Shown piece by piece: positions 1-43,000 of a stretch of 64,000 bases of DNA. A program made the position numbers and the translations under genes. The stretch's first letter is position 1, and each line of letters begins with the position of its first letter. The stretch is from Candidatus Omnitrophota bacterium (GTDB lineage: Bacteria; Omnitrophota; Omnitrophia; Omnitrophales; Aquincolibacteriaceae), in the NCBI GenBank assembly GCA_049324575.1, contig JBMONI010000002.1, positions 92,804-156,803 on the forward strand, in the 5' to 3' direction. Below the pieces are notes generated by a model, which had not been told where the DNA came from, ran no database searches, and saw nothing but the letters and a program-made list of their open reading frames with translations.

Positions 1-3000
1 AAAGACCCAATAATACTGATAAGGGTCGGCCCCCTGGCGAGGCCGTTTGATAACATAAGCGTCTTGGAGACCGGATTCAGCGACGTTCCCTTCCAAAAAC
101 GCTTTATAGGCTTCCGATCCATCGGGATCTGCTTCAGCGCTAACGGCATCAGAGGGAGTCCCTTCTTCAGGAGCGGGCGGCGTAGTCACATCCGAAGCGC
201 GAGGCGGCAGATCGATAAGACGAAAAGCCAAGACCACAGTCGAAGCCTCGGACGAAAGGATCTTAATGGCAGTCTCTTCGGCCAGTTGGTAACGAGCGCC
301 CCATCCCGCATCGCTTGAGATCGCGGCTCCAAAAGCTCTCAAGGTCTTTAGTTTTTTAGCGCCGTCGCCGGGCACATCCGGTCGGATCGGCCATTCAAGG
401 GTGACCCTCTTCTTTTCCGCGCTGAATTTCAATTCAAGCGGATCCTCCGAGCGGTACCACTCCTGGGACGTGATCAGACCGACAAGATCACTGATATCAA
501 GATCGGCGGCCTCTCCTTCTTCCCTCACCTCGGCCCGTAATGAAATAACACGGGCCTCGGCGCGAAGGCCATGTTTGGGACGCAACTCCCGGTCCGCATT
601 GTGGAAAAAACTCCTCACGGCCACCGGCATCCCGACGCTCTTGCGCGAATCATACCCCACTTGATTATTCAGCCATCTCCGGAAGGTTTCAAATTGCGGC
701 GGTCTTGTGATCCTCGCCCTTTCAAGAAAACGACGCTCTTTTTTCAACAACTTTTCGAAAAAGCGAATGGCGCCTTGATTTTCCGGGGTCGGATCAGCTT
801 CCTTTGCCATCGCAAGCGCTCTTTCGATCGCGGCTAGCGCGGTTATTTCGGCAACGGCCGTCACCACGGGTTGAGCGACATCACTTCGCAATTCCGCCCG
901 CCCTTGGAGGCGAGGCGTCTCGCCTTGGGCGGACGCACGGCGACGGCGCGAAACTTCGCCGTCCGAAGTCACGGGCCCCATCACCCCTTCCGCATTGGTC
1001 ACGCTGGGTGTATAGCGGTTGAGATAATTCCAAAGGAGCGAGCGCTCATTGAGAAGCGAAACGTCCCAGCCCCGGACCCCGGCAAAGATCCTTTCGAAAT
1101 GCGCGAGCACATTGAAAACAAATTCCTGGCGATGCGGTTTTCTCGCTTCCTGGCTCAAAGCGATATCCACCAGCGGCGCCAAAAGACTTTTCAGGATCGG
1201 GAGTGAGTAAGGAAGGTAAACATTGATGGCGCGATCGGCATTGGCCCGAGTTTCAAAAACGCGGCGGGTTTCGGCGATACGTTGTTCCTTCCACCGGCTG
1301 ATGACCTCCTGGACAGTCTTTTCAGGTCCGACCACCAATGTCGAAAGGATATCGAGCATCAGACGAATATCGTAGCCTGTGAGCAAACCGTTCCCCTGGA
1401 GCAAAAGGTCCGGACTGTTATAGGTGAAAAGACCGTAATGCGGGCCATAAGGTTTCACCGCTTCGACCATGGCATCTGAAAGCGCCTCGTTCCCGCTTAC
1501 GATCAGGACTTCATCCGTTTCCAAACGCATTTTTTGTTGCTTGCCGGTTTCATCGCGAAATGAAATTTCATTTCCTTGCAATATCCCCCGGACTTCCTCG
1601 GGCCCCGCAAATTCGATATCCAGAACCTTGACTTTGAAACCACGCTCGCGAAGCCCCGCTTCAACTCTTTCGGCGATCACATGCTTTCCGGACGACCGCA
1701 TCCCGCCCATCAGCACGACATTCCCTCCTTGACGGGAGCGAATTCGATCGGCGATCTCTGTCACCGCTCCTTCGATCGAGCGATGAAGCGTTTCATCGAC
1801 ATCGGCGATCAGCTCTTGCCGCTCTTTTGCGTTCAATCCGTTCAACTGATGCACCGTCGCCGGCGTTTGATCGAGCGCTTCTTTTTCGATGGTATACGGT
1901 AATCTCCGGGAAGGAAAAAGAAAGACCCTCAGAAGGATCGTCAGAACGCGAACAAGCCGCCCCCACCGATCGGACGGTTTGGACAAAGGTTTTCTGTATT
2001 TTTTGTAAAAAACCGATTGAGGATCCGCCAGTTCCGCATTCACGATCCGGGCCAGGGCCGTGATAAAAGCGGCCTTGCGAAGGTTCGTCTTTTTCGCCCG
2101 GGCGAGTTTGACCACGCTGTAAAAGGCCTTCAGAATGCGGTCTTCCATCATGCCGTTGACCATCACTTCGGGCCACTGTTCATTGACGTTATTCTGCCGC
2201 CATTCGAGGAAAGAGACGATCACGCCGCCCGCATTCGCGATGACATCGGGAACGATCAGGGCTCCTTTTCTTTCGAGGATCTTTTCAGTTTTCCGATTCT
2301 TGATCGGCCCATTCGCCCCTTCGACGATCATTTTCGCCCTGATCAGGGGGGCGATCTTTTCATCCACGGTATTCTCGCCCGCCGCGAGCGTCAGGATGTC
2401 GACATCGCTTGACCAGAATTCCGCCACCGGAACGATCCTGGCTTTTCCAGGATTCGCTTCGGCATAAGCGCGGAGCGCGTGTCCTTTGAATTTCCCGAGG
2501 TTCTCTTCCACGGAATAAAAACGGTTCACAAAATCATTGAGCTCGGGAATATCCAGCCCTTCGGGACCCACACTTGCGATCGCCATCGCTTCCTTGGGAT
2601 CATAGGCTTCCTTGATCGCCATGATCTTTCCCCCGGCCTCGGCGTAGAACCCGGTCGCATATCCCCCGACGTTCCCGCCTCCTTCCACCGCGAACCGAAG
2701 CCCCTTGATCTCGGTCCCGATGCCGAGCATTTTTCCAAAGATTTTCAGAGCTTCGCGCGTAATGAAATAAACGCCGCGTCCGGTAGCCTCGCGCCGGCCT
2801 TTCGAGCCTCCCTTGTCTACCGGTTTCGACGTAACAAAGCCAAGCGGAGATCCCTGAACCATTTTGAGATTTTGATGTGCCGGGTCTTTCAGATAAAAAT
2901 CGAGATAAGGCGTTCCGGTATCGGGGAATGAATTTTCAAGGAATCTGCGGAATCTCGGCGTCATAAAAAGCTCCGCATGTTTGATCTTCAGATACTCATC

Positions 3001-6000
3001 CGCCATCCATCCCATGATCTTTTCGGAGGTCCCGATATCGGGAGCGGGAATATCATCCAGAGGCCCGATCGTATCGGGATTTTTCTCGATAAGCGCCCGG
3101 ACATAGCCCCGGGTCAGCCGCGCAAGTTCGCCTTCGGAAAGAGTGCTCGGATCAATCTCGATGCCGCCTTTTCCACCGCCGTAAGGAAGTCCCGCGATCG
3201 CGTTTTTGACGCTCATCCACATCGAAAGCGCCTGGACATCCTCCACATCCACATGCGGACTGTACCGCACGCCCCCTTTCCCGGCGCCCAGGGCCGCGTT
3301 GTGATAAACGCGGTAGCCTTTGAAGGTCCGTGTCGAGCCATTATCCATCCGCGCCGGAATAGAAACTTCCGTCACGCGGTAAAAAGACAAAAGCCAATCG
3401 AGAAGTTTCCGGTCAAGCCCCATCGCTTTGGCCGCCTGACGGACCTGCTCCTTCGCGTTCCGAAGCGCGATCGCACCCGCCGACGCCTGTCGCACTTCGG
3501 CCCTGCCGGATTTTTTTTCGGTCGAAGCTGGCTCGACCTTGTCAGGGGCGGCCGCGCGAGAAGAGCTCTGAAGCTGGGCCCAAATCTCCGCTTCCCTTTC
3601 ATCCAAAGCCGCAAGGCGCCGGGCAAGATGCACGGCCATGCGGGGGTCGGTTCCGAATTGTTGATTGAGGCGTTCCCTTTCTTCCTGGATCGTTTGAAGC
3701 TCAAGAAGCGCACGATCTTCCGATACGCGCGTCGCCATCGCCGGAGAAAGAACGCCCGCTTTTTCTGCCTGTCGCAGTTCAGCGCGGGGAGGATTTTGAA
3801 ACTGTTTCAGTTTTTCGCTGACCCGCTTATACAGATCAGAATCTTCGTACACCCCTTTGATGAGCAAAAAGATGTTGTTTGCTTGCTTCGCTTTTTCCAG
3901 AAGCGCAGAATCGATGCCTTCCAAGACCTCCACTAAAGCGCTTATGCCGACTTCTCTCATGGCAACGACCACAGGATCTTCCCAAAGTTTTCGTTCCGCC
4001 TTTTCCACAAAATCCTCATCATGGATATTCGCCAGAACAAGCGTGTTGGCTAAATACTGATGGACTGTGAGATTCCCGTTATATTCCAACGCCATGCTAA
4101 TACCGCTTTGAGGGGTCACTCCCATTTTCTGCCAGACGGGATAGACCCTGGCAAAATTGCCTTTCTGAGAGGCCCATTCCTCAGTGCCTTCCTCCATTTT
4201 CAACTCGCCGTAGTAAACCGGGATCTCCAGTCCTGACCCGAAGTCGATCTTTTTGACAGGAAATATCCTCGACTTCGCGAAATCATCCATAAGCTTCCCG
4301 CCCAGGCTTGCGGCTAGAGACGGGATAGGATCGTCCGGTGTCAATGTCCCGCGCCAACTCAGTTCCATATCCTGATAACGCGACACACCGTGTCGTTTGA
4401 ATAACTCCACGATATATCCGTAATTCGCAGGTTTAACCTTTTTATGAAAACTATCCACGCTCACGCGAATAAAGAGATTCTTCAGCGGCTTCTTGCCGAG
4501 TTCGCGCCTGGCCTTCGCAGCTCCGGCGATATCATCAAGCAACCTTTCCGTTCTTGTTTCGTCCGAGAACATGATGCCGCTCGTGATAATCTCGATCTCT
4601 TCGACGTCGGCTTCTCTGATAAATTTCAGAAGGGACGGCATCCGCGTCAGCGGCTCCCCGCCCGTCAGCCCGATCTTTCTGAATCGTTTTTCTTTCAGAT
4701 ACTTAAGGATCCTGTCCACGTCCTTTTCATTGAAAAAAACTTCTTTTCTGCGATCTTGAACGGCATGCATGAAACAGAATGCACATTGGACTGGGCAGAA
4801 ATTTGTCAGCGAAATATAGAGCTCTTCATATTTCAAAAATTGTTCCCGAGAATATGCCCGCGCTTCGGCCCGAGGTTTTGCGCTAATGCCTAATCGCCCA
4901 ACGGCTAACGGCTGAATGATCGCTCGGAGTTCCGCCCGGCCGTTCGGCGAGATCACCGCGTCAGCGCGACTCGCGTATTCCATCGTGCCCGCTTTCGCGG
5001 CCGCAAGTTCCCCCGCCTGCGAGAAGATCGAACGTATGTAGGCCTTGGTGCCCGCCTCGTCCGCTTTCGTGATTCGCGGCGTCAATCTCGCGTACGTGTA
5101 GCCCTTCGATTCAAAATGTTCCCGGAACGGTTCCGCGTGGAATCCGCCCGTCACCACCGCTACCCGGTCCGTCCCCAGTTCCTTGATCCGCTCTTCGACA
5201 CGCCTCATCATGATCGTGTCGCGCTGCTTCGCGAATGAATAAAAAGACATTGCCTTATTGAACAGATCATCGATCTCGGCCAGATTCTCGAACGCCACGT
5301 CTTTGACGCGATTGTCTTTGTTGAGCGCCGAGAATCGGGAGGCGATATTCGAAGGAAGCAGAGGCGTATGGGAGTAGGACGGTATGGCAGTATGGAGTAT
5401 GGAGTATGGAGTATGGGGTTTTGCTGCATCCTGTGTACTGCTTACTGTCATACTGTTATATTCGCTGTCCGTCAATTTCAACTCGAACAGTTTCTCCAGC
5501 AACTGATAATCCGAAAGCAGCGCCACCAGCGCTTTTTCCTCGTCCGTCTTCGACATCCGTTCCAAGAGCTTCCCTTTCAACTGCTCCACTTCCGCCATCA
5601 GCGCCCCCGCCTCAAGCTCCGTCGACAAAAGCCACTGCCCAAGATAACTCTTCACCTGCGGGTATTTCCCATGCGCGAAGTCCCTCGGCAAATATCTCAC
5701 CATGTCCTCCACCAAGGACTCCGATTCCGCGCCCGAAAGCGGGATCTCGTGGATCGGGGTCCCGAGCACTTTCTCGATATAACCGTAAAGGTTCCGTGCG
5801 GAGATCCATTTCCCGTGGATCCGCGATTGCGCTCTGGTCAGATACGGCTTCACCGCGGCGAGGAATGCCGCGCGCTCGCTCTCGAATTTCGCGGCGTCGA
5901 ATTTCTCCGCGAGGTCCGTCGTCACATACAGCCTCACCAGCATCGGCCACTCGGCCTGATAGCCCGGGTCCGCGAGGTCCCAGCCGTAGCGCTTCGCTTT

Positions 6001-6684
6001 CGCGCGCAGGAACTTCGTCCATTCGCCGAAGCTCATCCGCTCCAGGGCGTACGATTCCTGCGCTCGCATGAATCCTTTCAGCGTGTCGTTCAGATAATGA
6101 CCCGAAAGACGCGCGATCGATTCGTCCATCGCCTTCAGGAACTTTCCCGTCGATTCTTTCGCTTTCAACACTTCGATGAACGCTTGCTCGTTCGCTTTGT
6201 AGGCCGCGAGGTCTTCGATGCCGTAAGCCGAAGCCGCCTTTTCATCGAGAAGATAAAGCTCCGCGCCGTGGACAAGCGCTTTTTTCGTGAGGTAGTCGTT
6301 GGCTTTGCGGTTGCGCGTTGGGTCGTTCGGAAAGAAATTCAGGATCGCGGGATCGAGTTTCGCCACCGCGCCTTCCACCAGCACCGTCTTGATCCCGAGC
6401 GTCTTTGTCAGATGATTCAGCAGCGCCTGGATATTTTTCTGCGCTTCGAAATTCCCGTGCGCCGTCTGAATGTGCACGATCGCCGGCCCTTGCGCCGTTT
6501 TCAGATGATCGAGGCGCCCGTGCTTTGTGGGAATGCTGATCGCACCCCAAGAAGCGTGGTCCGAAGCTTGGCGAACACCGATTTCCGTCACTGGAAATCC
6601 TGGCGCACCATAAGAAACATTGGTTGTGATGAAAATAACGGTGGTGAGGGCAGCGACAGCAGCTTTAAAGGGTCGAGCGCGCAT
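1..6684 (-). CDS. Giant multidomain protein, partial (C-terminus beyond window start; at least 2,228 aa in window). Order N to C: signal peptide, TraB/GumN/Tiki-like domain, radical-SAM core, Glu/Leu/Phe/Val dehydrogenase (GDH), P-loop NTPase-like domain, further uncharacterised sequence.
   Basis: Manual reverse-complement translation of every 60-nt line from 6720 down to 1: ATG at 6684..6682 (MRARPFKAAVAALTTVIFITTNVSYGAP...), in-frame TAG 15 codons upstream, then no stop through position 1. Absent from ORF track only because no stop lies inside the window. Motifs read directly: CPVQCAFCF + IGLTGGEPL (radical SAM); LPYGGGKGGIEIDP, DIPAPDIGTS, VEGGGNVGG, EGANGP, IANAGGV (GDH); GGMRSSGKH (Walker-A-like); H..H / VLVEGA / VAVVTGGFHAEP...GYTYARL (TraB/GumN-like). 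Confidence 0.85.
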   Translation of the reverse strand, partial: MRARPFKAAVAALTTVIFITTNVSYGAPGFPVTEIGVRQASDHASWGAISIPTKHGRLDHLKTAQGPAIVHIQTAHGNFEAQKNIQALLNHLTKTLGIKTVLVEGAVAKLDPAILNFFPNDPTRNRKANDYLTKKALVHGAELYLLDEKAASAYGIEDLAAYKANEQAFIEVLKAKESTGKFLKAMDESIARLSGHYLNDTLKGFMRAQESYALERMSFGEWTKFLRAKAKRYGWDLADPGYQAEWPMLVRLYVTTDLAEKFDAAKFESERAAFLAAVKPYLTRAQSRIHGKWISARNLYGYIEKVLGTPIHEIPLSGAESESLVEDMVRYLPRDFAHGKYPQVKSYLGQWLLSTELEAGALMAEVEQLKGKLLERMSKTDEEKALVALLSDYQLLEKLFELKLTDSEYNSMTVSSTQDAAKPHTPYSILHTAIPSYSHTPLLPSNIASRFSALNKDNRVKDVAFENLAEIDDLFNKAMSFYSFAKQRDTIMMRRVEERIKELGTDRVAVVTGGFHAEPFREHFESKGYTYARLTPRITKADEAGTKAYIRSIFSQAGELAAAKAGTMEYASRADAVISPNGRAELRAIIQPLAVGRLGISAKPRAEARAYSREQFLKYEELYISLTNFCPVQCAFCFMHAVQDRRKEVFFNEKDVDRILKYLKEKRFRKIGLTGGEPLTRMPSLLKFIREADVEEIEIITSGIMFSDETRTERLLDDIAGAAKARRELGKKPLKNLFIRVSVDSFHKKVKPANYGYIVELFKRHGVSRYQDMELSWRGTLTPDDPIPSLAASLGGKLMDDFAKSRIFPVKKIDFGSGLEIPVYYGELKMEEGTEEWASQKGNFARVYPVWQKMGVTPQSGISMALEYNGNLTVHQYLANTLVLANIHDEDFVEKAERKLWEDPVVVAMREVGISALVEVLEGIDSALLEKAKQANNIFLLIKGVYEDSDLYKRVSEKLKQFQNPPRAELRQAEKAGVLSPAMATRVSEDRALLELQTIQEERERLNQQFGTDPRMAVHLARRLAALDEREAEIWAQLQSSSRAAAPDKVEPASTEKKSGRAEVRQASAGAIALRNAKEQVRQAAKAMGLDRKLLDWLLSFYRVTEVSIPARMDNGSTRTFKGYRVYHNAALGAGKGGVRYSPHVDVEDVQALSMWMSVKNAIAGLPYGGGKGGIEIDPSTLSEGELARLTRGYVRALIEKNPDTIGPLDDIPAPDIGTSEKIMGWMADEYLKIKHAELFMTPRFRRFLENSFPDTGTPYLDFYLKDPAHQNLKMVQGSPLGFVTSKPVDKGGSKGRREATGRGVYFITREALKIFGKMLGIGTEIKGLRFAVEGGGNVGGYATGFYAEAGGKIMAIKEAYDPKEAMAIASVGPEGLDIPELNDFVNRFYSVEENLGKFKGHALRAYAEANPGKARIVPVAEFWSSDVDILTLAAGENTVDEKIAPLIRAKMIVEGANGPIKNRKTEKILERKGALIVPDVIANAGGVIVSFLEWRQNNVNEQWPEVMVNGMMEDRILKAFYSVVKLARAKKTNLRKAAFITALARIVNAELADPQSVFYKKYRKPLSKPSDRWGRLVRVLTILLRVFLFPSRRLPYTIEKEALDQTPATVHQLNGLNAKERQELIADVDETLHRSIEGAVTEIADRIRSRQGGNVVLMGGMRSSGKHVIAERVEAGLRERGFKVKVLDIEFAGPEEVRGILQGNEISFRDETGKQQKMRLETDEVLIVSGNEALSDAMVEAVKPYGPHYGLFTYNSPDLLLQGNGLLTGYDIRLMLDILSTLVVGPEKTVQEVISRWKEQRIAETRRVFETRANADRAINVYLPYSLPILKSLLAPLVDIALSQEARKPHRQEFVFNVLAHFERIFAGVRGWDVSLLNERSLLWNYLNRYTPSVTNAEGVMGPVTSDGEVSRRRRASAQGETPRLQGRAELRSDVAQPVVTAVAEITALAAIERALAMAKEADPTPENQGAIRFFEKLLKKERRFLERARITRPPQFETFRRWLNNQVGYDSRKSVGMPVAVRSFFHNADRELRPKHGLRAEARVISLRAEVREEGEAADLDISDLVGLITSQEWYRSEDPLELKFSAEKKRVTLEWPIRPDVPGDGAKKLKTLRAFGAAISSDAGWGARYQLAEETAIKILSSEASTVVLAFRLIDLPPRASDVTTPPAPEEGTPSDAVSAEADPDGSEAYKAFLEGNVAESGLQDAYVIKRPRQGADPYQYYWVF
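1330..1745 (-). other. P-loop NTPase-like domain within the giant protein (Walker-A-like GGMRSSGKH)
   Basis: Translated ...RQGGNVVLMGGMRSSGKHVIAERVEAGLRERGFKVKVLDIEF...; family not recognised. Confidence 0.35.
1985..3420 (-). other. Complete Glu/Leu/Phe/Val dehydrogenase (glutamate dehydrogenase-like) domain within the giant protein
   Basis: Translated SIPARMDNGSTRTFKGYRVYHNAALGAGKGGVRYSPHV...LPYGGGKGGIEIDPSTLSEGELARLTRGY...DIPAPDIGTSEKIMGWMADEY...GGSKGRREATGRGVYF...FAVEGGGNVGG...DILTLAAGENTVDEKIAPLIRAKMIVEGANGP...PDVIANAGGVIVSFLEWRQN; catalytic Lys and Rossmann GxGxxG both present. Confidence 0.85.
3990..4830 (-). other. Radical SAM core domain within the giant protein (CxxxCxxC at 4800..4774)
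   Basis: Translated ...YISLTNFCPVQCAFCFMHAVQDRRKEVFFNEKDVDRILKYLKEKRFRKIGLTGGEPLTRMPSLL...; no further Cys cluster, so no SPASM/twitch extension. Confidence 0.75.
5050..6590 (-). other. TraB/GumN/Tiki-like (PF01963-like) domain region of the giant protein
   Basis: N-terminal AIVHIQTAHG...TVLVEGAV and C-terminal RVAVVTGGFHAEPFREHFESKGYTYARL resemble the paired GxxH / E motifs of the TraB/GumN family; assignment from motif memory. Confidence 0.45.
5365..5417. repeat. Imperfect tandem heptanucleotide repeat (GTATGGA)n, three perfect plus about four degenerate units, inside the giant CDS
   Basis: Plus strand 5390-5410 = GTATGGA x3 perfect, flanked by GTATGGG, GTATGGCA, GTAGGACG, GTATGGG; on the coding strand CCATACT repeats encode ...KPHTPYSILHTAIPSYSHTP... 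Confidence 0.85.
6598..6684 (-). other. Predicted N-terminal signal peptide or signal anchor of the giant protein (MRARPFKAAVAALTTVIFITTNVSYGA)
   Basis: Basic n-region (R2,R4,K7) followed by a roughly 20-residue hydrophobic stretch; translated by hand. Confidence 0.55.
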
Positions 6685-7145
6685 ACCTTGTGTAAGAATT
6701 CCCGCGTTACCGATTAAGGTAAAGTTATTCTATTGTCTTACGCTTAACTTTTAAAAAATCTCAGGAAAGACAAAGATGCAAGAAATTTAACCGTCATGAA
6801 TGGCTTTGTCAAGTATAAGCCATACAATTTGTTACGAAAAATCCACCCCTGCCGATTTAGCACTCTTTTTCAGTATAAATCCGGATCGTTTTTTCCCATT
6901 TTCAAGTCACCGGCTAGCCCTTGGTAAAATAGGCCCTAATTCATGCTTGTTCCGATCAAAAACTAGCATTCTTGCCTCTTCCGTACATTTTCTTCGCGTA
7001 AAAAACTCGAAGATCCTCTCACAGACCCAATATCCTAACAGCGAATAGCGGCTTTCCCCGGCTCCGTGACATTTTCCGGAAGTTTAGGTAGAATACCGCT
7101 TCCGTTTTTTTACCGTATCTTTTCACCCAGAAAAGGAGTTTTGCC

Positions 7146-7892
7146 ATGTATAAATTGGTGCTTCTGCGTCACGGCGAAAGCGTTTGGAACAAAGAGAATC
7201 TCTTCACCGGATGGACCGATGTCGACCTTTCCGAAAAAGGCTGCCAGGAAGCGCGCGAGGCCGGACTCACCCTCAAAAAAGAGGGTTTTACTTTTGATTA
7301 TGCCTTTACCTCGGTCCTGAAACGGGCAATCCGGACGCTTTGGCTCACCACCGATGCCATGGACCTCCTGTGGCTTCCGGTCGAAAAATGCTGGCGGTTG
7401 AACGAGCGTCACTACGGAGCTTTGCAGGGACTTAATAAAAGCGACATGGCCGCAAAATACGGCGAAGAGCAAGTCAAGATCTGGCGCCGCAGCTACGATG
7501 TCCGCCCCACCGCTCTCGAAGAGAACGATCCGCGCAATGTTCGCAAAGACCCGCGCTATGCCGGACTGAAACCCGGCGAAGTCCCTCTCACCGAATGCCT
7601 GAAGGACACGGTCGCGCGCGTCATCCCCTGCTGGAAAGAAAGGATCGCCCCCGCGATCCGGTCCGGGAAAAAGATCATCGTCGCCGCGCATGGCAACAGC
7701 CTTCGCGCCATGGTCAAATTTCTCGATAACATTTCCGACGAAGCGATCGTCAGCATGAACATTCCGACCGGTCTTCCGCTTGTCTATGAACTTTCTTCAG
7801 ACCTGAAGCCGATCAAAAATTATTATCTCGGGGACCCCGAAAAAGTAAAAGCCGCCATGGCCGCTGTCGCGAATCAAGGCAAAGCGAAATAA
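7146..7892 (+). CDS. gpmA: 2,3-bisphosphoglycerate-dependent phosphoglycerate mutase
   Basis: [32 protein letters not shown]... classic GpmA N-terminus (RHGES catalytic His); RBS AAAAGGAG 8 nt upstream. Confidence 0.95.
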
Positions 7893-8021
7893 GGCTTCGC
7901 CCGCCTCGAGATATTCCCGCGCGTGCTGTCCCTTTCCAGCTCCAGACCGCCCCGTTCCTCCTCGCCCGTAAAGAGTCTTTTTCCTTAATTAAAGAATAAT
8001 TACAATCTAATCGATATTATT

Positions 8022-8075
8022 TGACAGACAACCATTAGTTGTATTATCTTGTAATCTGCATACGATATATCGAAT
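8022..8075 (+). promoter_or_regulatory. Candidate nrdAB promoter (TTGACA 8022-8027) overlapping two NrdR-box-like palindromes (ACAACCATTAGTTGT 8028-8042; ATACGATATATCGAAT 8060-8075, centres about 32 bp apart)
   Basis: Inverted repeats read in the AT-rich leader upstream of nrdA; spacing and ACA..wAtATaTw..TGT pattern match the published NrdR box consensus as I remember it. Confidence 0.5.
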
Positions 8076-8160
8076 ATGAATTTATACGATTTCAAAATTG
8101 CCAGATGTTTTCAGTTCAGTTTCCGTCCTTCTTTCCGCAAACAGTCTTAAGGAGATTCTC

Positions 8161-11100
8161 ATGACCGAACTATCGACTCATCTCGCCTCGATCGCCGTCA
8201 AAAAAAGGAACGGCCAGGAAGTCCCATTCTTCGCCGTCCGGATCCAGCGCGCCATCGCCAGCGCTTTCAAAGCGCATTGCGGACTGCCGCAGGAATCCGA
8301 CCTTCCCGAAGATCTTGCCCGCTCCGTGGAAAAGATCACCACCCAAGTCGTGGCCGGGTGCGAGACCGAAGCCGTCGACCGCAAGGTCCTTTTCATCGAA
8401 GACATCCAGGACACCGTCATCCGGACACTCGCTGCATCCGGCTTTCCGGAAATCGCCCAGCGCTATAAAGATTACCGTCATCTTCAGCAGACCGAACGCC
8501 TCGAGCACCAGCGCATCACGGTCAGGAAACGGGACGGGCGGACTGTATCGTTCAAACCCGAAAAGATCACACGCGCGATCGCAAAAGCCTTCGCTGCGGA
8601 ACTCGGAGAGGATCTTTTTCCCGAGACCGCGATCGAAGCCGCCTTGAAAGTTTCCGATGCCGTCATTCAAAAGGTCCGCGCCTTGAGCGCCGATGCTTTC
8701 ACGGTCGACATCGAGAAGATCCAGGATCTCGCGGAACTCGCTCTGATGGAGCAGGGATTCCACGATATCGCGCAGCGCTACATCCGTTATCGCGAAGACC
8801 GGCGCATGGCGCGCATCAGCGGGCCCTCCTCCCTCGCGGCCGAGACCTCGCAGCCTTCGCTTCGCCTCAAAAAAGCGAACGGAACTGTGCTCCCGCTCGA
8901 CCTTGCGCTGCTTCGCCGGATCATTCTCGACGCCTGTTTCGGCTTTGAGGACGAAGTCTCGCCTGAGCTCATTTTGAAGGCAGCCCTCCGTAATTGTGTC
9001 GATACTATGCCGGAGGAAAAGCTGATCGACGCAGTGGCCCTCGCCGTGCGACCGCTCATCGAAAAAGACACGGCCTATTCGTATATCGCCGGGCGCGTTC
9101 TGCTCAAAAAACTTTATGAAGAGGTTCACGGCGGTCCGGCCTCCAAAGAGCTCATCCGCGGCGTCTATCCCGAGCTTTTCCGGAAGGCTGTGGTGCGCGG
9201 GATCGAAGCCGAGCGACTTTCGCCCGCCATGCAGGATTACAACCTGCAGAAGCTCGGCAAAGCCCTCCGGATGGAACGCGACGAAAGCTTTCAGTTCATG
9301 GGCCTGCAGATCCTCTATGACCGGTATTTCCTCCATCACGACGGCGTCCGTTTTGAAACCCCGCAGATCTTTTGGATGCGGATCGCGATGGGCCTGGCCC
9401 TGAACGAAGGAAAGGCGAAGGATGACCGGGCGATCGAATTTTACGAAGTCCTTTCGACCTTTCGGTTCGTCAGCTCAACGCCGACGCTTTTCAACGCCGG
9501 GACCCTGCATCCCCAGCTTTCCTCCTGTTTCCTCACCACCGTCGCCGACGACCTCGACCATATCTTCAAAAGCATCAAGGACAACGCCATGCTCTCGAAG
9601 TGGAGCGGCGGCCTCGGGAACGACTGGACTTCGGTCCGGGCCATGGGCGCAAGAATCAAGGGCACGAACGGAAAAAGCCAGGGGATCATCCCGTTCCTCA
9701 AGGTCGCCAACGATACCGCGGTCGCCGTCAATCAGGGCGGAAAACGCCAGGGTGCGGTTTGCGCTTACCTGGAATGTTGGCATCTCGACTTCGAGGAATT
9801 CCTCGAACTGCGAAAAAACACCGGCGATGACCGGCGGCGCACACACGATATGCACACGGCCAGCTGGATCCCGGACCTTTTCATGAAACGGGTCCTGGCC
9901 AACGGCGACTGGACCCTTTTCAGCCCGAACGAAGTCCCGGACCTCCATGATCTTACGGGAACCGCCTTCGAGGAGCGGTACCGGGGATACGAATCCGCGG
10001 CACTCGCGGGAAAACTCCGCCAATCCAAGCGCATGCCGGCCGTTGATCTCTGGCGGAAAATTCTCACCATGCTTTTCGAAACCGGCCATCCCTGGGTCAC
10101 TTTCAAGGACCCCTCGAATATCCGCTCGCCGCAGGACCATCAAGGCGTCGTGCACAGCTCAAACCTCTGCACGGAGATCCTTCTCAATACGAACCGCGAT
10201 GAGACCGCGGTCTGCAACCTCGGTTCGCTCAACCTGGCCGCCCACATGACTTCCGGCGGCTTCGATCGAACGCTTTTGGCCGACACGGTCGGTATCGCCA
10301 TGCGCATGCTCGACAATGTCATCGACCTCAACTATTACCCGACCCCTGAGGCGAGAAACTCGAACCTCAAGCACCGGCCGGTGGGCCTCGGCCTGATGGG
10401 TTTCCAGGATTGTCTGTACCGGATGGGTGTCAGTTACGCTTCCGACGAGGCCGTCCGCTTCGCCGATGAAAGCATGGAATTCATCTCTTATCATGCTCTC
10501 CTGGCCTCGACCGAGCTTGCGCGCGAGCGAGGCCCTTACGCGTCCTTCAAAGGTTCGAAATGGGACCGCGGGATCCTGCCGTTCGATACGCTGGCGCTCC
10601 TCGAAAAAGAACGCGGAGGCTATCTCGAGATCGACCGGTCACAAACCCTGGATTGGACCCCGGTCCGTGAGGCGATCCGCCAGCACGGCATGCGCAATTG
10701 CAATACCATGGCGATCGCTCCGACCGCCACGATCGCCCAGATCGTCGGGATTACGCAGTCGATCGAGCCTCTCTATAAACATCTTTTCGCCAAAAGCAAC
10801 CTCTCGGGCGAATTCACAGCGATCAATCCTTATCTCGTGGCCGAGCTCAAGGCCCTCGGGATCTGGGATACGGGAATGATCGATGACCTGAAATATTTCG
10901 ACGGGTGCTTGGCCGAGATCGCAAGGATCCCGCAAAGCGTCAAGAACCGTTTTCCGACAGCGTTCGAGATCGATTACGAGTGGATCATCGAATGCGCGAG
11001 CAGGCGTCAGAAATGGATCGATATGGGGCAGTCCGTGAATCTGTATCTCGCGGAAGCCAGCGGCAAGAAACTGCATAGCATGTACACCCTGGCTTGGCAG

Positions 11101-11271
11101 AAAGGGTTGAAAACGACCTACTACCTGCGCTCCCTGGGCGCGACACGGATCGAGAAATCCACGCTGGACGCGAAAAAATACAAGAACACGATCGGTAAAA
11201 AAAAATTCACCCCGGAACAGACGGCCCAGTGCCGCCTCGATAACCCTGACAGTTGCGAAGCCTGTCAGTAA
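8161..11271 (+). CDS. nrdA: Class I ribonucleoside-diphosphate reductase alpha subunit with N-terminal ATP-cone(s)
   Basis: ATG at 8161 preceded by AAGGAG (the ORF-track start at 8098 is an upstream extension). ATP-cone VKKRNGQEVPF..., active-site region NLCTEILLNTNRDETAVCNLGSLNLAAH. Confidence 0.93.
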   Translation: MTELSTHLASIAVKKRNGQEVPFFAVRIQRAIASAFKAHCGLPQESDLPEDLARSVEKITTQVVAGCETEAVDRKVLFIEDIQDTVIRTLAASGFPEIAQRYKDYRHLQQTERLEHQRITVRKRDGRTVSFKPEKITRAIAKAFAAELGEDLFPETAIEAALKVSDAVIQKVRALSADAFTVDIEKIQDLAELALMEQGFHDIAQRYIRYREDRRMARISGPSSLAAETSQPSLRLKKANGTVLPLDLALLRRIILDACFGFEDEVSPELILKAALRNCVDTMPEEKLIDAVALAVRPLIEKDTAYSYIAGRVLLKKLYEEVHGGPASKELIRGVYPELFRKAVVRGIEAERLSPAMQDYNLQKLGKALRMERDESFQFMGLQILYDRYFLHHDGVRFETPQIFWMRIAMGLALNEGKAKDDRAIEFYEVLSTFRFVSSTPTLFNAGTLHPQLSSCFLTTVADDLDHIFKSIKDNAMLSKWSGGLGNDWTSVRAMGARIKGTNGKSQGIIPFLKVANDTAVAVNQGGKRQGAVCAYLECWHLDFEEFLELRKNTGDDRRRTHDMHTASWIPDLFMKRVLANGDWTLFSPNEVPDLHDLTGTAFEERYRGYESAALAGKLRQSKRMPAVDLWRKILTMLFETGHPWVTFKDPSNIRSPQDHQGVVHSSNLCTEILLNTNRDETAVCNLGSLNLAAHMTSGGFDRTLLADTVGIAMRMLDNVIDLNYYPTPEARNSNLKHRPVGLGLMGFQDCLYRMGVSYASDEAVRFADESMEFISYHALLASTELARERGPYASFKGSKWDRGILPFDTLALLEKERGGYLEIDRSQTLDWTPVREAIRQHGMRNCNTMAIAPTATIAQIVGITQSIEPLYKHLFAKSNLSGEFTAINPYLVAELKALGIWDTGMIDDLKYFDGCLAEIARIPQSVKNRFPTAFEIDYEWIIECASRRQKWIDMGQSVNLYLAEASGKKLHSMYTLAWQKGLKTTYYLRSLGATRIEKSTLDAKKYKNTIGKKKFTPEQTAQCRLDNPDSCEACQ

Positions 11272-11451
11272 AAGAATTTGAAATGAAAAACAGAAATCCG
11301 AACACGGAAAATTCGAAACAACCGCGAAACTCTAAATTCGAAAGGGTCCAGCCCGGACGTTTTTCGGGCCTTGCATTTTCCGATTTCACGTTTGTTTCGA
11401 ATCTCTTATTTATAATTTCGGATTTGCCAACATCAAAATAAGGAGGCTGTG

Positions 11452-12507
11452 ATGAATAAAAAAGACTACATCATTCCGATGACCAAGGAGCGGATCCGCA
11501 TCGAGGACAAGCGGATCATCAATAACAAGGCCGTCGACGTAAACCAGCTGATCCCGATCAAATATGAATGGGCATGGCAGTATTATCTCGACGGATGCGC
11601 GAACCACTGGATGCCGCAGGAGATCTCCATGCAACGTGACATCGAGCAGTGGAAAGACCCGAAAGCCTTCTCTGACGATGAGCGTCTCATGTTCAAGCGG
11701 AACCTCGGATTCTTCACGACCTCCGACACGCTTGTCGCGAACAATATCATCCTGGCGATCTACCGCTACGTCACAGCCCCCGAGATCCGCCAGTATTTCC
11801 TCCGCCAAGCCTTCGAAGAGGCTGTTCACACCCACGCTTACCAGTACATCCCGCAATCACTTGCCTTTGACGAAGGCGAGCTCTACAACATGTACCGCGA
11901 GATCCCGTCGATGCATGCCAAAGCAGAGTTCGAAGCCGAACTCACCGCTGATATCCTGAAACCGGACTTCGAAACCGACTCTTTTGAAGGCCGCCAGCGG
12001 CTTTTGAGCAATTTAATCGGTTATTACGGAGTCACCGAAGGGATCTTTTTCTACGCGGCCTTTGTCATGCTGCTTTCCTTCGGCCGGCACAACAAATTGC
12101 CCGGCATGTGCGAGCAGGTCCAGTACATTCTCCGCGACGAAAGCATGCACCTCAATTTCGGACTGCATTTGATCAACGAGATCATCCGGGAGGAGCCGGC
12201 CATCTGGACCCCGGCTATGCGGGAAGAGACCGTACACAAATTCAAGAAAGGCGTGGAACTCGAGGTCGAATATGCCAAAGACTGTCTGCCGAACGGGCTC
12301 ATGGGCCTGACCCTGGACCTGATCCGCGAATACATCCAGCATATCGCGGACCGCCGGCTCGAAAGGCTCGGGCTTCCGGTCCAGTTCCCGAAGGCCGGGA
12401 ACCCTTTCCCCTGGATGAGCGAGATCATCGACCTGAGAAAAGAAAAGAATTTCTTCGAAACGCGCGTGACGGAATATCAGACCGGCGGAACGCTTGACTG
12501 GAGCTGA
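11452..12507 (+). CDS. nrdB: Class I ribonucleotide reductase beta subunit (ferritin-like, di-iron/tyrosyl radical)
   Basis: MNKKDYIIPMTKERIRIEDKRIINNKAVDVNQLIPIKYEWAWQYYLDGCANHWMPQEI...; RBS AGGAGG at 11441-11446; the GTG at 11449 is a 1-codon extension. Confidence 0.93.
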   Translation: MNKKDYIIPMTKERIRIEDKRIINNKAVDVNQLIPIKYEWAWQYYLDGCANHWMPQEISMQRDIEQWKDPKAFSDDERLMFKRNLGFFTTSDTLVANNIILAIYRYVTAPEIRQYFLRQAFEEAVHTHAYQYIPQSLAFDEGELYNMYREIPSMHAKAEFEAELTADILKPDFETDSFEGRQRLLSNLIGYYGVTEGIFFYAAFVMLLSFGRHNKLPGMCEQVQYILRDESMHLNFGLHLINEIIREEPAIWTPAMREETVHKFKKGVELEVEYAKDCLPNGLMGLTLDLIREYIQHIADRRLERLGLPVQFPKAGNPFPWMSEIIDLRKEKNFFETRVTEYQTGGTLDWS

Positions 12508-36423: not shown

Positions 36424-37065
36424 TTAACTGACACGGATAAAAGCGGAAGCGTCGGTCTTGCAGATCGCACAGGTCCCCGAAGAGGCCGCTTCCTTGATAT
36501 TCCCGCAGACGGGGCACACGAAAAAATTCTTGGTCCCCTTTTTCCAGGCTTCCTCATGATCAAGGATCTTGCGGCAAAGGTCCGCATGAACGTTCTCGGC
36601 CTGCATCGCGTCCTTGAAAGAATCGACAGCCTCTTCGGCCCCCGCCGCCTCGGCGGTCTCGAGGAAATCCGGATACATGGCCGTGGCTCCGTCCATGCGC
36701 TCGTTGAGCATCGTTTCGAGGTTGTCGCGGGTACTCTCGACCTTCGCCGGATCGATCACCGCCGCCGGCTCGCCGCCGAGCTGGCGGATCACTTCCGCGT
36801 GCCGTTCAAAATGGACCTGGGCCGCACGCGCGATTGCGCGGAAAAAGCCCGCGACCGCTCCAAAGCCTTCCTGGTCAGCCTTCCCGGCGAACGCCATCGC
36901 GTTCACATGGGCATTGCTCTCCGCGCGGAAAGCGGTCATGAGAAGCTCAAGCGGGCCGTTCTCCTGGTTCGTTTCCGCGGCCACGCTCATGCCCGACAAG
37001 GTTATCCCCATCAAACCTGCCAGCAAGAATGCCCCCAGTCGCTTGCGCGCTCGGACCCTGTTCAC
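36424..37065 (-). CDS. Rubrerythrin with apparent N-terminal signal peptide and C-terminal rubredoxin-like CPVCG...CAICK
   Basis: Ferritin-like E...E..H motifs (AFRAESNAHVNAMAFAGKADQEGF...HFERHAE); GTG start 37065 has a good RBS (GGGAAGGA-8nt) and overlaps the stop of the upstream giant gene (GTGA). Confidence 0.75.
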   Translation of the reverse strand: MNRVRARKRLGAFLLAGLMGITLSGMSVAAETNQENGPLELLMTAFRAESNAHVNAMAFAGKADQEGFGAVAGFFRAIARAAQVHFERHAEVIRQLGGEPAAVIDPAKVESTRDNLETMLNERMDGATAMYPDFLETAEAAGAEEAVDSFKDAMQAENVHADLCRKILDHEEAWKKGTKNFFVCPVCGNIKEAASSGTCAICKTDASAFIRVS

Positions 37066-40000
37066 GCTTTTTTTCCTTCCCGCAAAGAGACCTCAGCACC
37101 GATCGGGCTCTTGCTCACATCCCGGCGGACCCGGCCCACCTTCAAACGGCCGCGAGGCTCTCCGAGATCCTTGGGAAGGACCAGCTGATTCCCCGCCAGG
37201 GAAGCCCCGACCACGCCTTCGATCGCCTGACGAAGCATCCATCCCGCCGCCCCGGTATAACCGTGCCATATCATGCGGCCCTGGTCGTAATTGGTCAAAA
37301 GGTCTGCCGCCTGTTTGTTCGGCTGGCCCCCGTAGATCTCGATCTCTCCGGCCGTCACATGCGGAATGGAGGAAATTTTCAACCATAGCCGAAGCGCGGT
37401 TTCGCGATAGGAAGCCGCTTTGGAAGCATTCCCCCGCGAGGCATAATGTTCGGCCAGGACCCTGGCGGCTTTCACAAGCCATTGGACCCCGTGACAGTAC
37501 ATGCCGTTCTCGCGGACCCCTTCCGGATATTTACTGCTTCGGCCCAGATAAGGCTTAGTATCCTCGCGAAGCGACGGCCATCCGAGCAGGATGGCGTTCG
37601 GTTTTTCAAGGACCTGAAGCGCCGTATTGAAAACGATCTCATTGCGCTCGGGATTGATCCCCGCCATGACCGCCCACGCCGCGGTCAGGGCGTCAATCTC
37701 CCAGATCCCGCTCCCCTTGATACCGATCTCGGTGCCGTCATCATGGATCGCCCGAAGATACCGGTCGGTCCGCCATGTTCTTTCGAGCGCTTCGGCAAGC
37801 GCCTTCATCTTTTTCTCGTAGTGCTCCCGCCGGGCGAGCCCGTCCCGCTTCTCGATGATCCCAAGCATTTCCTTGAGGATATAGTAAAGGAAGAAACCGA
37901 GCCAAATACTTTCCCCCTTCCCCGCGCTCCCGATCTCATCCAGCCCGTCGTTCCAGTCCCCGGTCCCGATCAGCGGGATGCCGTTACGCCCCATCCTTTT
38001 TTCGAGTACGACGTCGATCGATTTCATGCAATGGCGATAGACCGTATCGGCCCGCGTGGAGCGCTGGTAAAAATGTCCCCAGCCATGTTTGTTCTTCGGC
38101 AGAGGCGCGAACGGGAATTCCGAGGTCACATAAGAGGTCATTTCGTCGAGAATCGTTTCATCCCCGGCAAGGCGAAGATATTCCGCCACTCCCCAGGAGA
38201 GCCACAGCAGATTGTCCGAGGCATGGGAACGGCAGGAAAAAGAAGTGCGTCCGTCGGTCAGCGTGAAGAACCAGTGGAAGACATCCCCTTCCACGAATTG
38301 ATGCGAGGCATGGAGCAGGATCTGTTTACGAGCCAGCGCCGGATCGACCCAGATCATATTGACGGTATCCTGAAGCTGGTCCCGGAAACCGAACGCGCCG
38401 CTGGTCTGATAAAAGCCCCGGCGCGCCCAGATCCGTTCCGCAAGGGCCTGATATTTGAGCCAGTATTGGTATGCATCGAACTCCGGAAGGTCGGTCTTGA
38501 TCTCAAGGGTGTTCATGAGCCGGAGCCACCAGTCGCGCGTTTCTTCCAGGCTCTTTCGGGCGGTATCGAGATTTTTGTATTTCTGGACGATCCGGATCGC
38601 CTCCGGATGCGTGTCGGTCTGTCCCAAGACGATCGCAATGGTTTTCTCGCCCCTGGCCGGGATCTCCACCGTCCCAAGGAATCCCGCGACCGGCTTGTCA
38701 TCGGTCCGATGCCCGAGGTCCGGCTCCCCGGTTTCCACCAAAAAGGGGTGCGTCACCCCGCGGCCCCGGCCGAAAAAGGCCCCGCGTTTCGTGACCCAGC
38801 GGTCGGCCGGAATCGACATGGACGCAAAAGCCCACCCGGTGCGGAAAAGATTGCGTGGATTCTCGAAAAGAAGCGCATCGAGGACCTTGTCATGTTTTTG
38901 GCACAAAGCTCCGGCCCGCTCAGGCTGGAACGCGAGCGCGATCTGAAAATAAGGCGCGATCCGCATCCGCTTGAGCCTGTCGGAATCGTTCTTCACGGTG
39001 AGAAGATAAACCCCGGTCGGCTCGTCCGGAGGGACAAAAACGGTCAACTGGGTCGAGACCGAGCCGGAACTCATCCGGAACACCGCGGTCCCGTCCACGC
39101 TGAATTCGGATTCATAGCGCGCCCGCAGATCATTCAAGGGATGATAGGTCGGTGAGAACCATTCTTTTTGATCCGGATCGTACAGATAGATCGCTTCCGC
39201 CGGGACTTCTTTCGTCACCGTATCGGGCCAATCCGGCGTCACGCGGTTCTGCTGAGAATTGCCGTTGCAGGAAGTATGCAGGCCCCGGTTCGTGACCATG
39301 ACCGAATGCACGGCATTGGAAAGTGCGTGATCATAAGGACGGGTCGTGAACGGGGTCCGGACGATAAGCTTCCGCCCTTCGGCCGTATATTCCGAATAAG
39401 GCTGCGGGGTCCCGGGCAGGATCTCGCCGTGGCCGATCAAAGGCTGTCTTTTCTTACCGGGGACCGCGGGGGACGCGGCGGCCTTCGGGGCCAGATGCTT
39501 CTCGATCATCTCGAGCGCCGCCTTCTTGTTCTTCGCCCAGCCGATCATCAGCCGCATCGATTTTGGGGCCGCGGGCGCAAGCGCCATGTCCACCACAAGA
39601 CAACCGATCGGATCGAAGGTCGGATAAGGCGCCATGTCTCGCGCTTCAAGAAAACCCATGGTCTCAAGGATCCGGGGTGTCCAAAGACTCCGGGCGCGGC
39701 CGATAAAATCCATGCGGGAGGTATGGAACCCCTCGGGCGCCGCCTCCGAAGCCAGGATCCCCATGGACTTCGTGTTCTTCTGCCAGGAAAGCACGGCATT
39801 GGCCTCGCTCACATATTCCATTTCCGGATAAAGCCGAGCATACTGCGTATGGAAGCGATCATCCAGAGGCCGGTTCAACACCCACTCCAGATACGGGACG
39901 ATCTTGAGCGCGCGGGGCTTCGAACTCAAGTTCTCGAGCAAAATCGTCCACACCTCCGCCGTCCCGTTATGCGGAACGAGCCCGATCTCGATCGTGGCCC

Positions 40001-43000
40001 GCACCCCGTGATTCTCGTTCACAAGCTTCAGGCGATTTCCGTCCTTGGAGATCCTGGACGCCGGGAACCGGTCGCGCGGAAAATTCCCGAAGATTGGCCA
40101 GGCGCGCGCCGCGCTCCCCGGTTTTTCCGCCATATCCACCACAAAAAGCGCGCGGCCGCAGGGCTCGAGATTATCGTAGCAGCGGCGGCTCACATCATAG
40201 CTTTTTTGCACCACTTCGCTGTACCCTTCGCCGCCCTCGAGGACCACCGTCTTGTATTCATGATGTCCGATCTCGAAACTTTTCTCGCGGCGGCTTTCCC
40301 CGCGGCGGACCATCGCGCGGAAACAAAAGGAAATGAGCGTCGCCAACAAGACCGCCCCGAGACCGACCCCCAAGAGCTGAAGGACCGGAAGCGCCCGCAG
40401 GGACGCGACAAGTCCCGCGCCCTTTGCGTTCTGGATCGCAAGCGAGGTCCCCCACGCATAATCCCATTCCGCGCCGCGCGGGATATAAAAGGGAATGAGA
40501 AGCGGCGCCCATGTGGTGAACCGCTTGACCCCTTCGGGAATGCACCGTTGCGCAGCGGCCGGACCGATGAACTTCGCGGTCTTCTCGTCCAGCTTATCCA
40601 TGCCGATAAAGCTCAGGTTCACGAGCGTCGCGACCCGCAGCCCCATGTGGTCCATCCAGATCAGGACACGAAAGAAATCAAAGGCCAGCACGTAGACGAA
40701 AACCGTAAGGCTCCAGTCCCGGAAAGCCTCCGGAGACAGGGTCAGCTTATTCCAGATCGCGACCAAGGTGCGGATCGCGCCATCCTGGTTATACCAGGTC
40801 GGATCGGGCATCATGCGCAGGAACGTAAAAATAATAGGCGACATCCAGAGTCCCCAACGGAGGACGTAAAGCATGTGCTGGATGAGCTCCATGAAACCGG
40901 CTTTCGAGAAAAAGAATTTGATCGGCGCGGTATCCTTCTGGAAGAACGCCTCCATGAAGACCTTATTGACAGCGAAAAGCCAGGCCGCGATCGACCAGTT
41001 AATGACCCCCGCCAGGGATTCGGTGAAAAGGAGCTTGGCCCCGCCGGAGTAACTGCCGAGGTCGATCCGCCCCCATTTGTTGACCAACGGATAGGTGATG
41101 TAGTCGACCGGAGTAAATCCGGCGCTCGTATAAAGTTTGAATTTTTCGATAACCACGGGGACCTGAAGCGAATCCAAATAGAAAGCGACCGCGCTTCCGA
41201 CGAAAGCGCCCAGGGCCGCGTCCACCAGATAAAGCCGCCACGACTGGATATTCCCCTGGCCTTTGAACGTATAGAGGGCGTCCCGCAGCAAACTGACCCC
41301 CAGCGAGGCCGCCAGACCGACCATGCAGCCGAAATGGATCCGGCTCGGCATCGCTTCCTGGAAAAGCCCGCGGCTGATCATGAAAGCCAGTCCAAAGCCG
41401 ACCACCGCTCCGCGCACGTACAGGATCGGATTCCGGTAACTGTAATGAGCCCGCTCAAAAAAAGGAAGACTGCCGTCGAACGATTCGATGATGGTCTTGA
41501 TGAGCGGGAAAACAAGCGCTCCCGCCATAAGCCCCACGACCAGAGGGAAAGAAGCCATGATCGAGCTCACCGCCGAATGGTTGAGCGCCAGATACAAAAG
41601 ATAAAGGATCGCAAGCAGGATCCCGCTATAGGCCATCCCCTTGCGCATGCCGGTATAGGAATGCTGGGAAACCGTTTCCGAACTCGGAGCTTTCCGGTGC
41701 ACCCCGTCCACAATAGCGCCCGTGATCAGATAAACTTCGCCCCAAAGCCCCGCATAAGAAAGGATCGTCGCAAGGATCGACACCATGCCGCGAAAGAGCG
41801 CCGGCAAAGCGCCGACCCAGGCGGTGGAACCCCAATCCGCGATCTCAGGCGCGAGCGCCACGGCGACCGAAACAAAAAGCATGGAAAGATGCGCTTTGCG
41901 GACGTTCAGGACCTTCCCCTGGGTCGCGAGACTGATCCCGCTGATCACGACTTCGTTAAAAGCAAAAACGATCACGGCACGGCCCAAGATCCCCAAAACG
42001 ACCGGCCACGCCGCAAGTACGCTCAGCGTCAAGGCGCCGGCCAGGTCCTGCAAAAGCGCCGCGTTCTCGAGAAGAAGGATCCAGCCTAAAAGATAAGGAG
42101 TAAGCACGATCAGTCCGCCCGCGATCGGCCGCAGGTGCTTTCCGGAGTTGGCCATCGACAGGACGTTCACGGACTGGTAGATCACAAAGGTCAGCGCTGC
42201 GAGATGGTTCGTTAAAAGGAAGAGCTGCGACCATGTCGCCGGGGCCTGAAGGATCTCCTGCCGGCTCGAACCCGCGGCCAAAAGTCCCGTCAAAAGGATG
42301 TCCTGGAAAAGCTCGGACGGGGTCAGCGTTTTCCCGGCAAGCACCCGCTTGCAAACGGCAGAAAGCGCGGCTCCGAGCAAGGCGATCCCGAGGAAATGAA
42401 AATTGGTATCGAGCGTGCTCCCCTTGCCGAGCCCGCAGATCATGAAACCGATCGCAAGGATCGTGACCGCAACGGCCCCGTAAAAAAGATCCTTTTTGAG
42501 ATGCCAGAGCCAGGACCTCGGAAACGCCGAAAGGTCCTCGGCCGGGACCGCAGAAGGAGCAGCGGACATCCGCCGGCCCCGGAAGATCCGCTTTAAGAAC
42601 GCGGCGACGCCCGCCATCAGGAGGCTCAGCAGGATGACGAGAGAGACCTTGATCAGCGTAAAATTCTTCTCGAGCGGCGTCAAACGTCCGAAGCGGAGAT
42701 CGAAGAAAAGTTTTCCCGTGACGGCTTCGCTGATCTCAAGCGGGCTCACGCCGATCGGATTGATGGCCATCGGTCCTATCGCCATCGGACTGACGACATA
42801 AACGACCTCCGTCAGGTTCCCGATCGTATTCCAGTTCACCGCCTCAAGGAAATAATTCCATCCGGGCTGCAGCCGTAGCGGAATGCTCTGCATCCCGCGG
42901 GTCCCCTTGATCTCGGCTTTGACGGTCACCTGCTGGATCTGATCCCCATGGGGGACCTTGACGCCGATCTTTACGGCGTCCGCGACCTCGGCCCCGTAAT

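Follow-up and report, generated by a model that had tools for sequence, protein, structure and literature searches.

The giant genes of Omnitrophota rank with the longest genes known, and it is an open question how the cell controls them and bears their cost. A 64,000-nucleotide (nt) stretch of DNA from Candidatus Omnitrophota bacterium (GCA_049324575.1, contig JBMONI010000002.1, positions 92,804-156,803 of the forward strand), referred to here as the window, raises this question in a specific form: does a heptanucleotide tandem repeat in the 5' part of a giant gene act as a frameshift switch for its product? All positions given below are those of the window unless a locus is named. Our analysis points to a slippage-prone microsatellite arm that toggles the frame of the giant gene in nature, on in this genome and off in a relative, and that would serve as a low-rate, heritable on/off mutational switch. 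We judge this reading to have an even chance of being correct.

The heptanucleotide array and its place in the giant gene

On the plus strand, positions 5366-5417 read GTATGGGA GTAGGACG GTATGGCA, followed by GTATGGA GTATGGA GTATGGA GTATGGG. The coding (minus) strand reads CCCATAC TCCATAC TCCATAC TCCATAC TGCCATAC CGTCCTAC TCCCATAC and encodes the peptide KPHTPYSILHTAIPSYSHTPLLP. Tandem Repeats Finder (TRF) reported a repeat of period 7 at 5382-5416 with 4.9 copies, 96% matches and a score of 61, the highest score among the 15 tandem-repeat rows of the window. The perfect lag-7 run extends over 5389-5416 (4.0 copies). Because only about 1e-8 runs of 21 consecutive lag-7 matches are expected by chance per 64 kb (64000 x 0.25^21), the array is non-random. 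A heptanucleotide tandem repeat inside a giant coding sequence, as proposed in a first-pass annotation made from the sequence alone, is thus confirmed at 5366-5417. Based on the sequence, TRF and a copy-number simulation, the putative slippage-prone core is the perfect array at 5389-5417 on the minus strand, which is (TCCATAC)x4 on the coding strand and GTATGGA x3 plus GTATGGG on the plus strand. It is flanked at 5366-5389, on the same strand, by the three degenerate 8-nt units, 24 nt in total and in frame, which read as the decayed outer portion of the same heptamer array. There is one period-7 array in the 64 kb of the window, and no second copy of a GTATGGA-type unit was found elsewhere in it; a dispersed repeat built on this unit was therefore ruled out for the window.

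The array has an inverted partner. At 5436-5456 (minus strand), across an 18-nt spacer at 5418-5435, 17 of 21 bases match the reverse complement of 5379-5399. The alignment score of this decayed arm is 22, against a mean of 10.9 (standard deviation 2.2) for shuffled sequences, and was reached by none of 500 shuffles. The repeat thus appears to be the better-preserved arm of an inverted pair of heptamer arrays.

The minus-strand frame that contains the array has no stop between 6729 and base 1 (2243 codons) and continues past the window edge. We place the start of the open reading frame (ORF) at the ATG at 6684, in agreement with the start of the homologue P0001 described below. The ORF (1-6684, minus strand) therefore encodes at least 2228 amino acids (aa), and the repeat lies 1.27 kb downstream of the start codon. 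ORF analysis and domain searches assign to the product an N-terminal hydrophobic helix, an EreA/ChaN/TraB-like domain, a radical SAM domain (aa 624-723), a Glu/Leu/Phe/Val dehydrogenase domain (aa 1103-1552) and, further downstream, a P-loop kinase-like segment recognized by a weak match. The conserved N-terminal domain covers approximately aa 1-580 (4945-6684, minus strand) and carries the motifs HIQTAHGNFEAQKN and VVTGGFH. It has no Pfam family, DUF5682 being matched below threshold only. A tblastn search of GTDB species representatives returned 405 relatives of this domain, and the best 80 of the 405 are nearly all from Omnitrophota, with several relatives per metagenome-assembled genome (MAG) in some cases. 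When aa 462-1100, which follow the repeat, were used as a protein query, there were zero matches. This null result is uninformative because the first protein search had likewise missed the giant orthologues that tblastn detected; giant proteins are apparently absent from the database.

The repeat-encoded loop occupies aa 421-441. In alignments this segment is an insertion within the N-terminal domain, between the motifs HIQTAHGN.EAQ and ITGGFH. The first-pass annotation had correctly described the peptide as rich in Pro, Tyr, Ser and His. Its placement of the peptide in a linker, with truncation following the first domain, is not supported: the alignments and the loop prediction place the repeat inside the EreA/ChaN/TraB-like N-terminal domain, where it is predicted to encode a disordered loop rather than an inter-domain linker.

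Copy-number change and a truncated homologue

Since 7 is not a multiple of 3, the gain or loss of one or two units shifts the frame. Changing the unit number in silico produced ORFs of 467 aa (two units fewer), 489 aa (one fewer), 474 aa (one more) and 496 aa (two more), and left the frame open with no change or with three additional units. The proposal of the first-pass annotation that a one-unit change would frameshift and truncate the giant protein is borne out by these ORFs of 467-496 aa, and P0001, at 474 aa, fits the addition of one unit. With that extra unit, the ORF ends at a TGA stop at 5267-5269 (minus strand).

P0001 was the only close homologue found among 5.8 billion proteins. It comes from an NCBI Omnitrophota MAG (locus tag ACOY3K_01780), is 83% identical to the window protein in the BLAST alignment and is deposited as a 474-aa hypothetical protein. 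The two proteins are collinear, with zero indels, through ...AAKPHTPYSILHT, after which P0001 continues with PYCHTVLLPYASASFEYR... and stops. Insertion of a single TCCATAC into the window DNA yields an ORF of the same length as P0001. The first 29 residues of its tail (KPHTPYSILHTPYCHTVLLPYASASFEYR) are identical to those of P0001, including the translation, in the shifted frame, of the three degenerate 8-nt units. P0001 thus appears to correspond to the window sequence plus exactly one TCCATAC unit, with four units and an intact frame here and five units and a truncated product there.

Beyond the 29 identical residues, the tails of P0001 and of the product with one extra unit differ at 9 of 24 positions. 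These differences require a minimum of 11 nucleotide changes, which cause 9 amino acid changes in the shifted frame of P0001 and only 2 in the frame of the window; seven of the 11 fall at third codon positions of the window's frame. Because the downstream differences are mostly silent in the window's frame, the frameshift is young relative to the divergence of the two genomes (83% identity). The pattern indicates that the sequence of P0001 evolved under selection in the unshifted frame and that the 7-nt insertion was recent on that timescale. Together these comparisons strongly suggest that a whole-unit length change, with truncation of the gene, has occurred naturally at this array.

Further alleles were sought in several collections. 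A flank-anchored DNA pattern allowing approximately 1-9 units gave no matches in Joint Genome Institute (JGI) metagenome contigs, and a protein-based scan of the same contigs returned a best match of only 36% identity. The GTDB species representatives contained no close relative, the best match being 41% identical. A look-up with the neighbouring gene gpmA identified one Logan contig, SRR32167788_121766, that is 100% identical to 6454-10326 of the window and ends 1 kb before the repeat. This contig, an independent assembly of run SRR32167788, shows that the run includes the very strain of the window; it breaks at 6454, which is 230 nt inside the giant gene.

A switch at this array would operate as follows. 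A unit would be gained or lost at (TCCATAC)4 by strand slippage during replication, the frame would shift, and translation would stop within 30-60 codons. The product would lack the latter half of the N-terminal domain, with its GGFH motif, as well as all downstream enzyme domains. Four units would correspond to the in-frame, on state of this genome and five units to the 474-aa, off state of the relative. If such changes are reversible, the array would give heritable, low-rate on/off control over a costly giant protein; otherwise the change in the relative would be an occasional loss-of-function mutation.

Period-7 arrays across related Omnitrophota loci

We surveyed 85 related loci from GTDB species representatives together with the window, 1.26 Mb in total. 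Period 7 was the commonest tandem period, with 132 TRF rows; periods 6, 9 and 12 had 19, 80 and 63 rows, respectively. Ten perfect arrays of at least three copies were found for period 7 and none for periods 5, 6, 9, 10 and 11. The arrays are unevenly distributed. The first 2.2 kb of the family ORFs contain 39 arrays in 171 kb (0.229 per kb), the remainder of the same ORFs 1 array in 318 kb (0.003 per kb), and all other sequence 54 arrays in 769 kb (0.07 per kb), a count that includes two more 5' arrays from a second paralogue at locus L050. Array density is thus approximately 70-fold higher in the first 2.2 kb of the family ORFs than in the rest of those ORFs, and eight of the ten perfect arrays lie in the 5' region of family genes. 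A frameshift switch is most effective near the 5' end of a gene, and the 5' concentration of the arrays lends circumstantial support to the switch. We regard this family-wide bias of frame-breaking arrays as the part of the analysis most worth following.

The same survey also furnishes the evidence for a different explanation, in which the arrays are a neutral or selfish, genome-wide class of heptamers that is tolerated in disordered loops and has no role in switching. Such a class would resemble the heptameric SSRs and short tandemly repeated repetitive sequences of cyanobacteria and Xanthomonas, or REP-like hairpins. The extra unit of the relative would then be an ordinary deleterious slippage mutation at the onset of pseudogenization, a minority variant captured by the assembly or an error of assembly. 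Arrays of the same type are also present beyond the family ORFs, in many cases where there is no long ORF at all, and frequently as inverted pairs for which strong hairpins are predicted (z-scores of -2.7 to -7.2). The units are specific to a genome and common to several of its loci (GTACGGA at L001 and L004, GAGAC/GTCTC types at L011, GTCTGTG at L059, GTATGGA in the window), most arrays are degenerate, with 70-90% matches, and every intragenic array in the species representatives is in frame. The predicted disorder of the encoded loop is also as expected for a tolerated insertion. Tolerance fails, however, to explain the 5' excess, as the remaining 318 kb of the family ORFs also contains many inter-domain linkers, and it leaves unaccounted for the position of the perfect, and thus recently active, arrays. 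Moreover, the same 4-5 loop sites of the N-terminal domain carry arrays repeatedly, even in lineages where the arrays have diverged beyond their flanks. It is also unlikely that an artefact would lengthen a four-unit tract by precisely one 7-nt unit; a whole-unit indel of 7 nt is a signature of slippage, unlike a sequencing error of the homopolymer type. Considering both sides, we view this explanation as possible, though it is one that we tend to doubt. Even if the arrays are merely tolerated, they display a strong and unexplained positional bias and are a source of mis-annotation, for which P0001 provides an example.

Fifteen adjacent array pairs are inverted, with 5-7 of the 7 unit positions complementary. 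They fold as periodic hairpins, in which helices of 5-6 bp are broken every 7 nt, and much better than shuffled sequences. Inverted pairs are found at L001, L004, L005, L006, L010, L011, L042 and L048, among other loci, both in frame in orthologous genes and outside the family ORFs. These observations bear on the idea that the selected feature is nucleic-acid structure. A hairpin of RNA or DNA, located in the 5' part of the giant transcripts, could bind a protein, direct processing, affect stability or make translation pause, and frameshifting would then be incidental. In its favour, the arms remain complementary although the units differ between genomes, and the window array retains a recognizable partner arm. 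Loci L001 and L004 also keep the same unit at orthologous sites, where the nucleotide identity of the arrays (0.72-0.82) exceeds that of the flanks (0.57-0.58, with a flank third-position identity of 0.38-0.39). This conservation is confined to that pair. Arrays have diverged further than their flanks in L006/L011, L009/L010 and other pairs (nucleotide identity of 0.36 versus 0.69 for L006 against L011), and we therefore rejected general nucleotide-level conservation of the arrays. Hairpin-templated (quasipalindrome) mutation can also make two arms complementary in the absence of selection. The window element itself barely folds better than shuffled sequence, with a z-score of -1.44 and 22 of 200 shuffles folding equally well, which rules it out as a strong hairpin. 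We consider a structural role as the primary function improbable.

The rapid divergence of the arrays within a better-conserved domain suggests that the presence of an array at a site persists while its sequence turns over. Such turnover, faster than in the rest of the domain and located at recurrent loop sites, is what would be expected if the arrays generate hypervariable loops, that is, if they provide in-frame variation in length and sequence, through changes of three units or compensating changes in the two arms, to putatively exposed loops of the N-terminal domain. The orthologous arrays of L001 and L004 differ by an in-frame gap of 9 nt, the addition of three units preserves the frame in the window, and for most giant proteins of Omnitrophota secretion or membrane anchoring is predicted (10.64898/2026.06.07.730766). 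The sole variant observed at this locus, in contrast, is out of frame, and a 7-nt unit is poorly suited to in-frame variation, since two of every three slips would be lethal to the protein. We consider variation of the protein the least probable of the explanations discussed here.

Several observations weigh against the low-rate frame switch, which we nevertheless favour. All 39 period-7 arrays in the first 2.2 kb of the related genes from species representatives are in frame, and across the 85 loci heptamer arrays are not the site of a frameshift in any family gene; off states are therefore rare in consensus assemblies. P0001 is the sole off case found, which leaves recurrent off alleles among related genes unobserved, and its unit count is deduced from the protein length and the identity of the 29-residue tail of this one relative rather than from DNA. 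The tract in the window has four perfect units, a number above the permissive threshold of at least three with which a survey of Haemophilus influenzae searched for heptamers and well below the 13-38 units of the heptanucleotide tracts described in that species (PMC2651432); any switching rate is therefore probably low. Up to seven arrays occur in one gene (L004 and L011), which is hard to square with each acting as a fast switch. Since the same class of arrays is also found outside the family ORFs, it is not specific to switching, and because inverted heptamer arrays also lie between genes, the repeat was not necessarily built as a switch.

The only two frame switches seen in family genes lie elsewhere than at an array. 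In L007 the switch coincides with a masked run of N. In L042 (7858-7941), a family gene in MAG CAYGIT010000043.1 switches frame at approximately 7898, near GACCCCTTTATC; this is probably an ordinary frameshift or an assembly error.

The first-pass annotation had described the repeat as having a classic phase-variation geometry. The geometry is present, and a one-unit change appears to have occurred in nature; the label classic presupposes frequent and reversible switching and is not supported for a tract of four perfect units in a family whose 5' arrays are uniformly in frame. It had also reasoned that an invariant copy number, or conservation of the repeat at the protein level in orthologues, would argue against phase variation. 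Neither was observed: P0001 apparently differs by one unit, and in more distant orthologues the repeat is absent or replaced by other heptamers.

A broader version of the switch would extend it to the phylum. Omnitrophota would place heptamer-array hairpins in the first ~2 kb of a giant multi-enzyme gene family as frameshift contingency switches, such that a slip in either arm would silence a very costly protein early in its translation and a second, compensating slip would restore it; the window and its relative would represent two states of this previously undescribed phase-variation system of ultra-small, host-dependent environmental bacteria. We offer this version as speculation and think it unlikely. 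What the analysis adds to the question of giant-gene regulation is a frame-breaking unit change at a 5'-proximal microsatellite of a giant gene, together with the concentration of arrays at the 5' end across the gene family. Should the arrays prove to be switches, giant proteins would be under stochastic on/off control, contingency loci would no longer be a matter of host-adapted pathogens alone, and some of the giant genes that appear fragmented in MAGs may be real off states.

Relation to known repeat systems and other features of the window

The closest parallel to the low-rate switch is found in the simple sequence repeat (SSR) contingency loci of Haemophilus and Neisseria, such as hmw1a. 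The hmw1a ORF of H. influenzae contains an intragenic heptanucleotide tract, (AATTTTG)14, with a frameshift consistent with a change in tract length (PMC2651432). The window shares with these loci an uninterrupted repeat, in a very large ORF, whose unit is not a multiple of three, a whole-unit difference between genomes (as deduced for one relative), and a truncating frameshift that separates full-length from truncated products. It differs from them in its 4-5 units, compared to 13-38 in H. influenzae, and in that reversible switching is here a hypothesis. The organism that carries it belongs to the uncultured, environmental Omnitrophota and is no host-adapted pathogen. The array is also one arm of an inverted pair, and related Omnitrophota genes hold several arrays at once.

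The heptanucleotide repeats of Calothrix and Nostoc, of the short tandemly repeated repetitive (STRR) type, and those of Xanthomonas resemble the Omnitrophota arrays in the over-representation of 7-nt units, in genome-specific units at many loci, in the occurrence of some inverted stem-loop pairs and in lengths that vary between relatives. In contrast, approximately 40% of the Omnitrophota arrays (39 of 94, those in the first 2.2 kb of family ORFs) are coding and in frame, and their units are neither G-rich nor quadruplex-forming. The cyanobacterial repeats and the Xanthomonas GGGAATC repeat have been described as over-represented heptameric SSRs that are essentially intergenic and sometimes inverted (PMC4692102).

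Palindromic repeats are also known within protein-coding genes. Rickettsia palindromic elements (RPE) are inserted in frame in such genes as dispersed copies, 100-150 bp long, of one consensus. As in RPE, hairpin-forming repeat DNA is translated here as an extra peptide in a tolerant region of the protein. Unlike RPE, the loci have only the heptamer unit in common; their spacers and lengths differ and the arms are internally tandem, which makes growth by local slippage more likely than transposition. Numerous copies with a full-length consensus of arms and loop, as in RPE, repetitive extragenic palindromic (REP) sequences or miniature inverted-repeat transposable elements (MITEs), were not found, with spacers and arm lengths differing even within a genome.

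The units of in-ORF repeats in Borg elements have lengths divisible by three, so that slippage in them is frame-neutral, unlike slippage of a 7-nt unit, which breaks the frame. Tandem repeats in Borgs are reported to create intrinsically disordered protein regions (PMC9879509), and the Omnitrophota arrays are similar in being fast-evolving nucleotide tandem repeats within ORFs that encode disordered segments. Two papers on Omnitrophota giant genes, one of them 10.64898/2026.06.07.730766, do not mention heptamers, frameshifts or phase variation, and a literature search pairing Omnitrophota with heptanucleotide found no paper.

A short motif recurs along the giant protein. The pattern R-[AS]-E-[VALTI]-R (RAELR, RAEAR, RAEVR) occurs seven times, at aa 583, 605, 967, 1061, 1929, 2041 and 2050, compared to 0.06 occurrences expected from shuffled sequences. 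Several copies directly precede domains, such as that at aa 605 before the radical SAM domain and that at aa 1061 before the dehydrogenase. The motif is absent from the second giant ORF and from the other long ORFs of the window, and similar motifs (RSESR, RSETR, RVEAR, RSEIR) are present in the homologues P0002-P0006. It could be a polyprotein processing site.

One copy of this motif adjoins a homopolymer that the first-pass annotation had proposed as a second slippage site. The T8 run at 3511-3518 (A8 on the coding, minus strand) encodes EKK directly before an SGRAEVR linker. The run is real and may slip; it is one of nine A/T runs of at least 8 in the window, however, and has nothing distinctive about it.

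A second giant reading frame, 2444 codons between stops, lies at 37065-44396 on the minus strand. RAExR motifs and heptamer arrays are both missing from it, and it does not resemble the N-terminal domain family. Beyond the start of the giant gene and on the opposite strand, 7146-12507 contains ordinary housekeeping genes, including a phosphoglycerate mutase (His_Phos_1), and ORFs of 1057 aa and 352 aa that by eye resemble the large and small subunits of ribonucleotide reductase.

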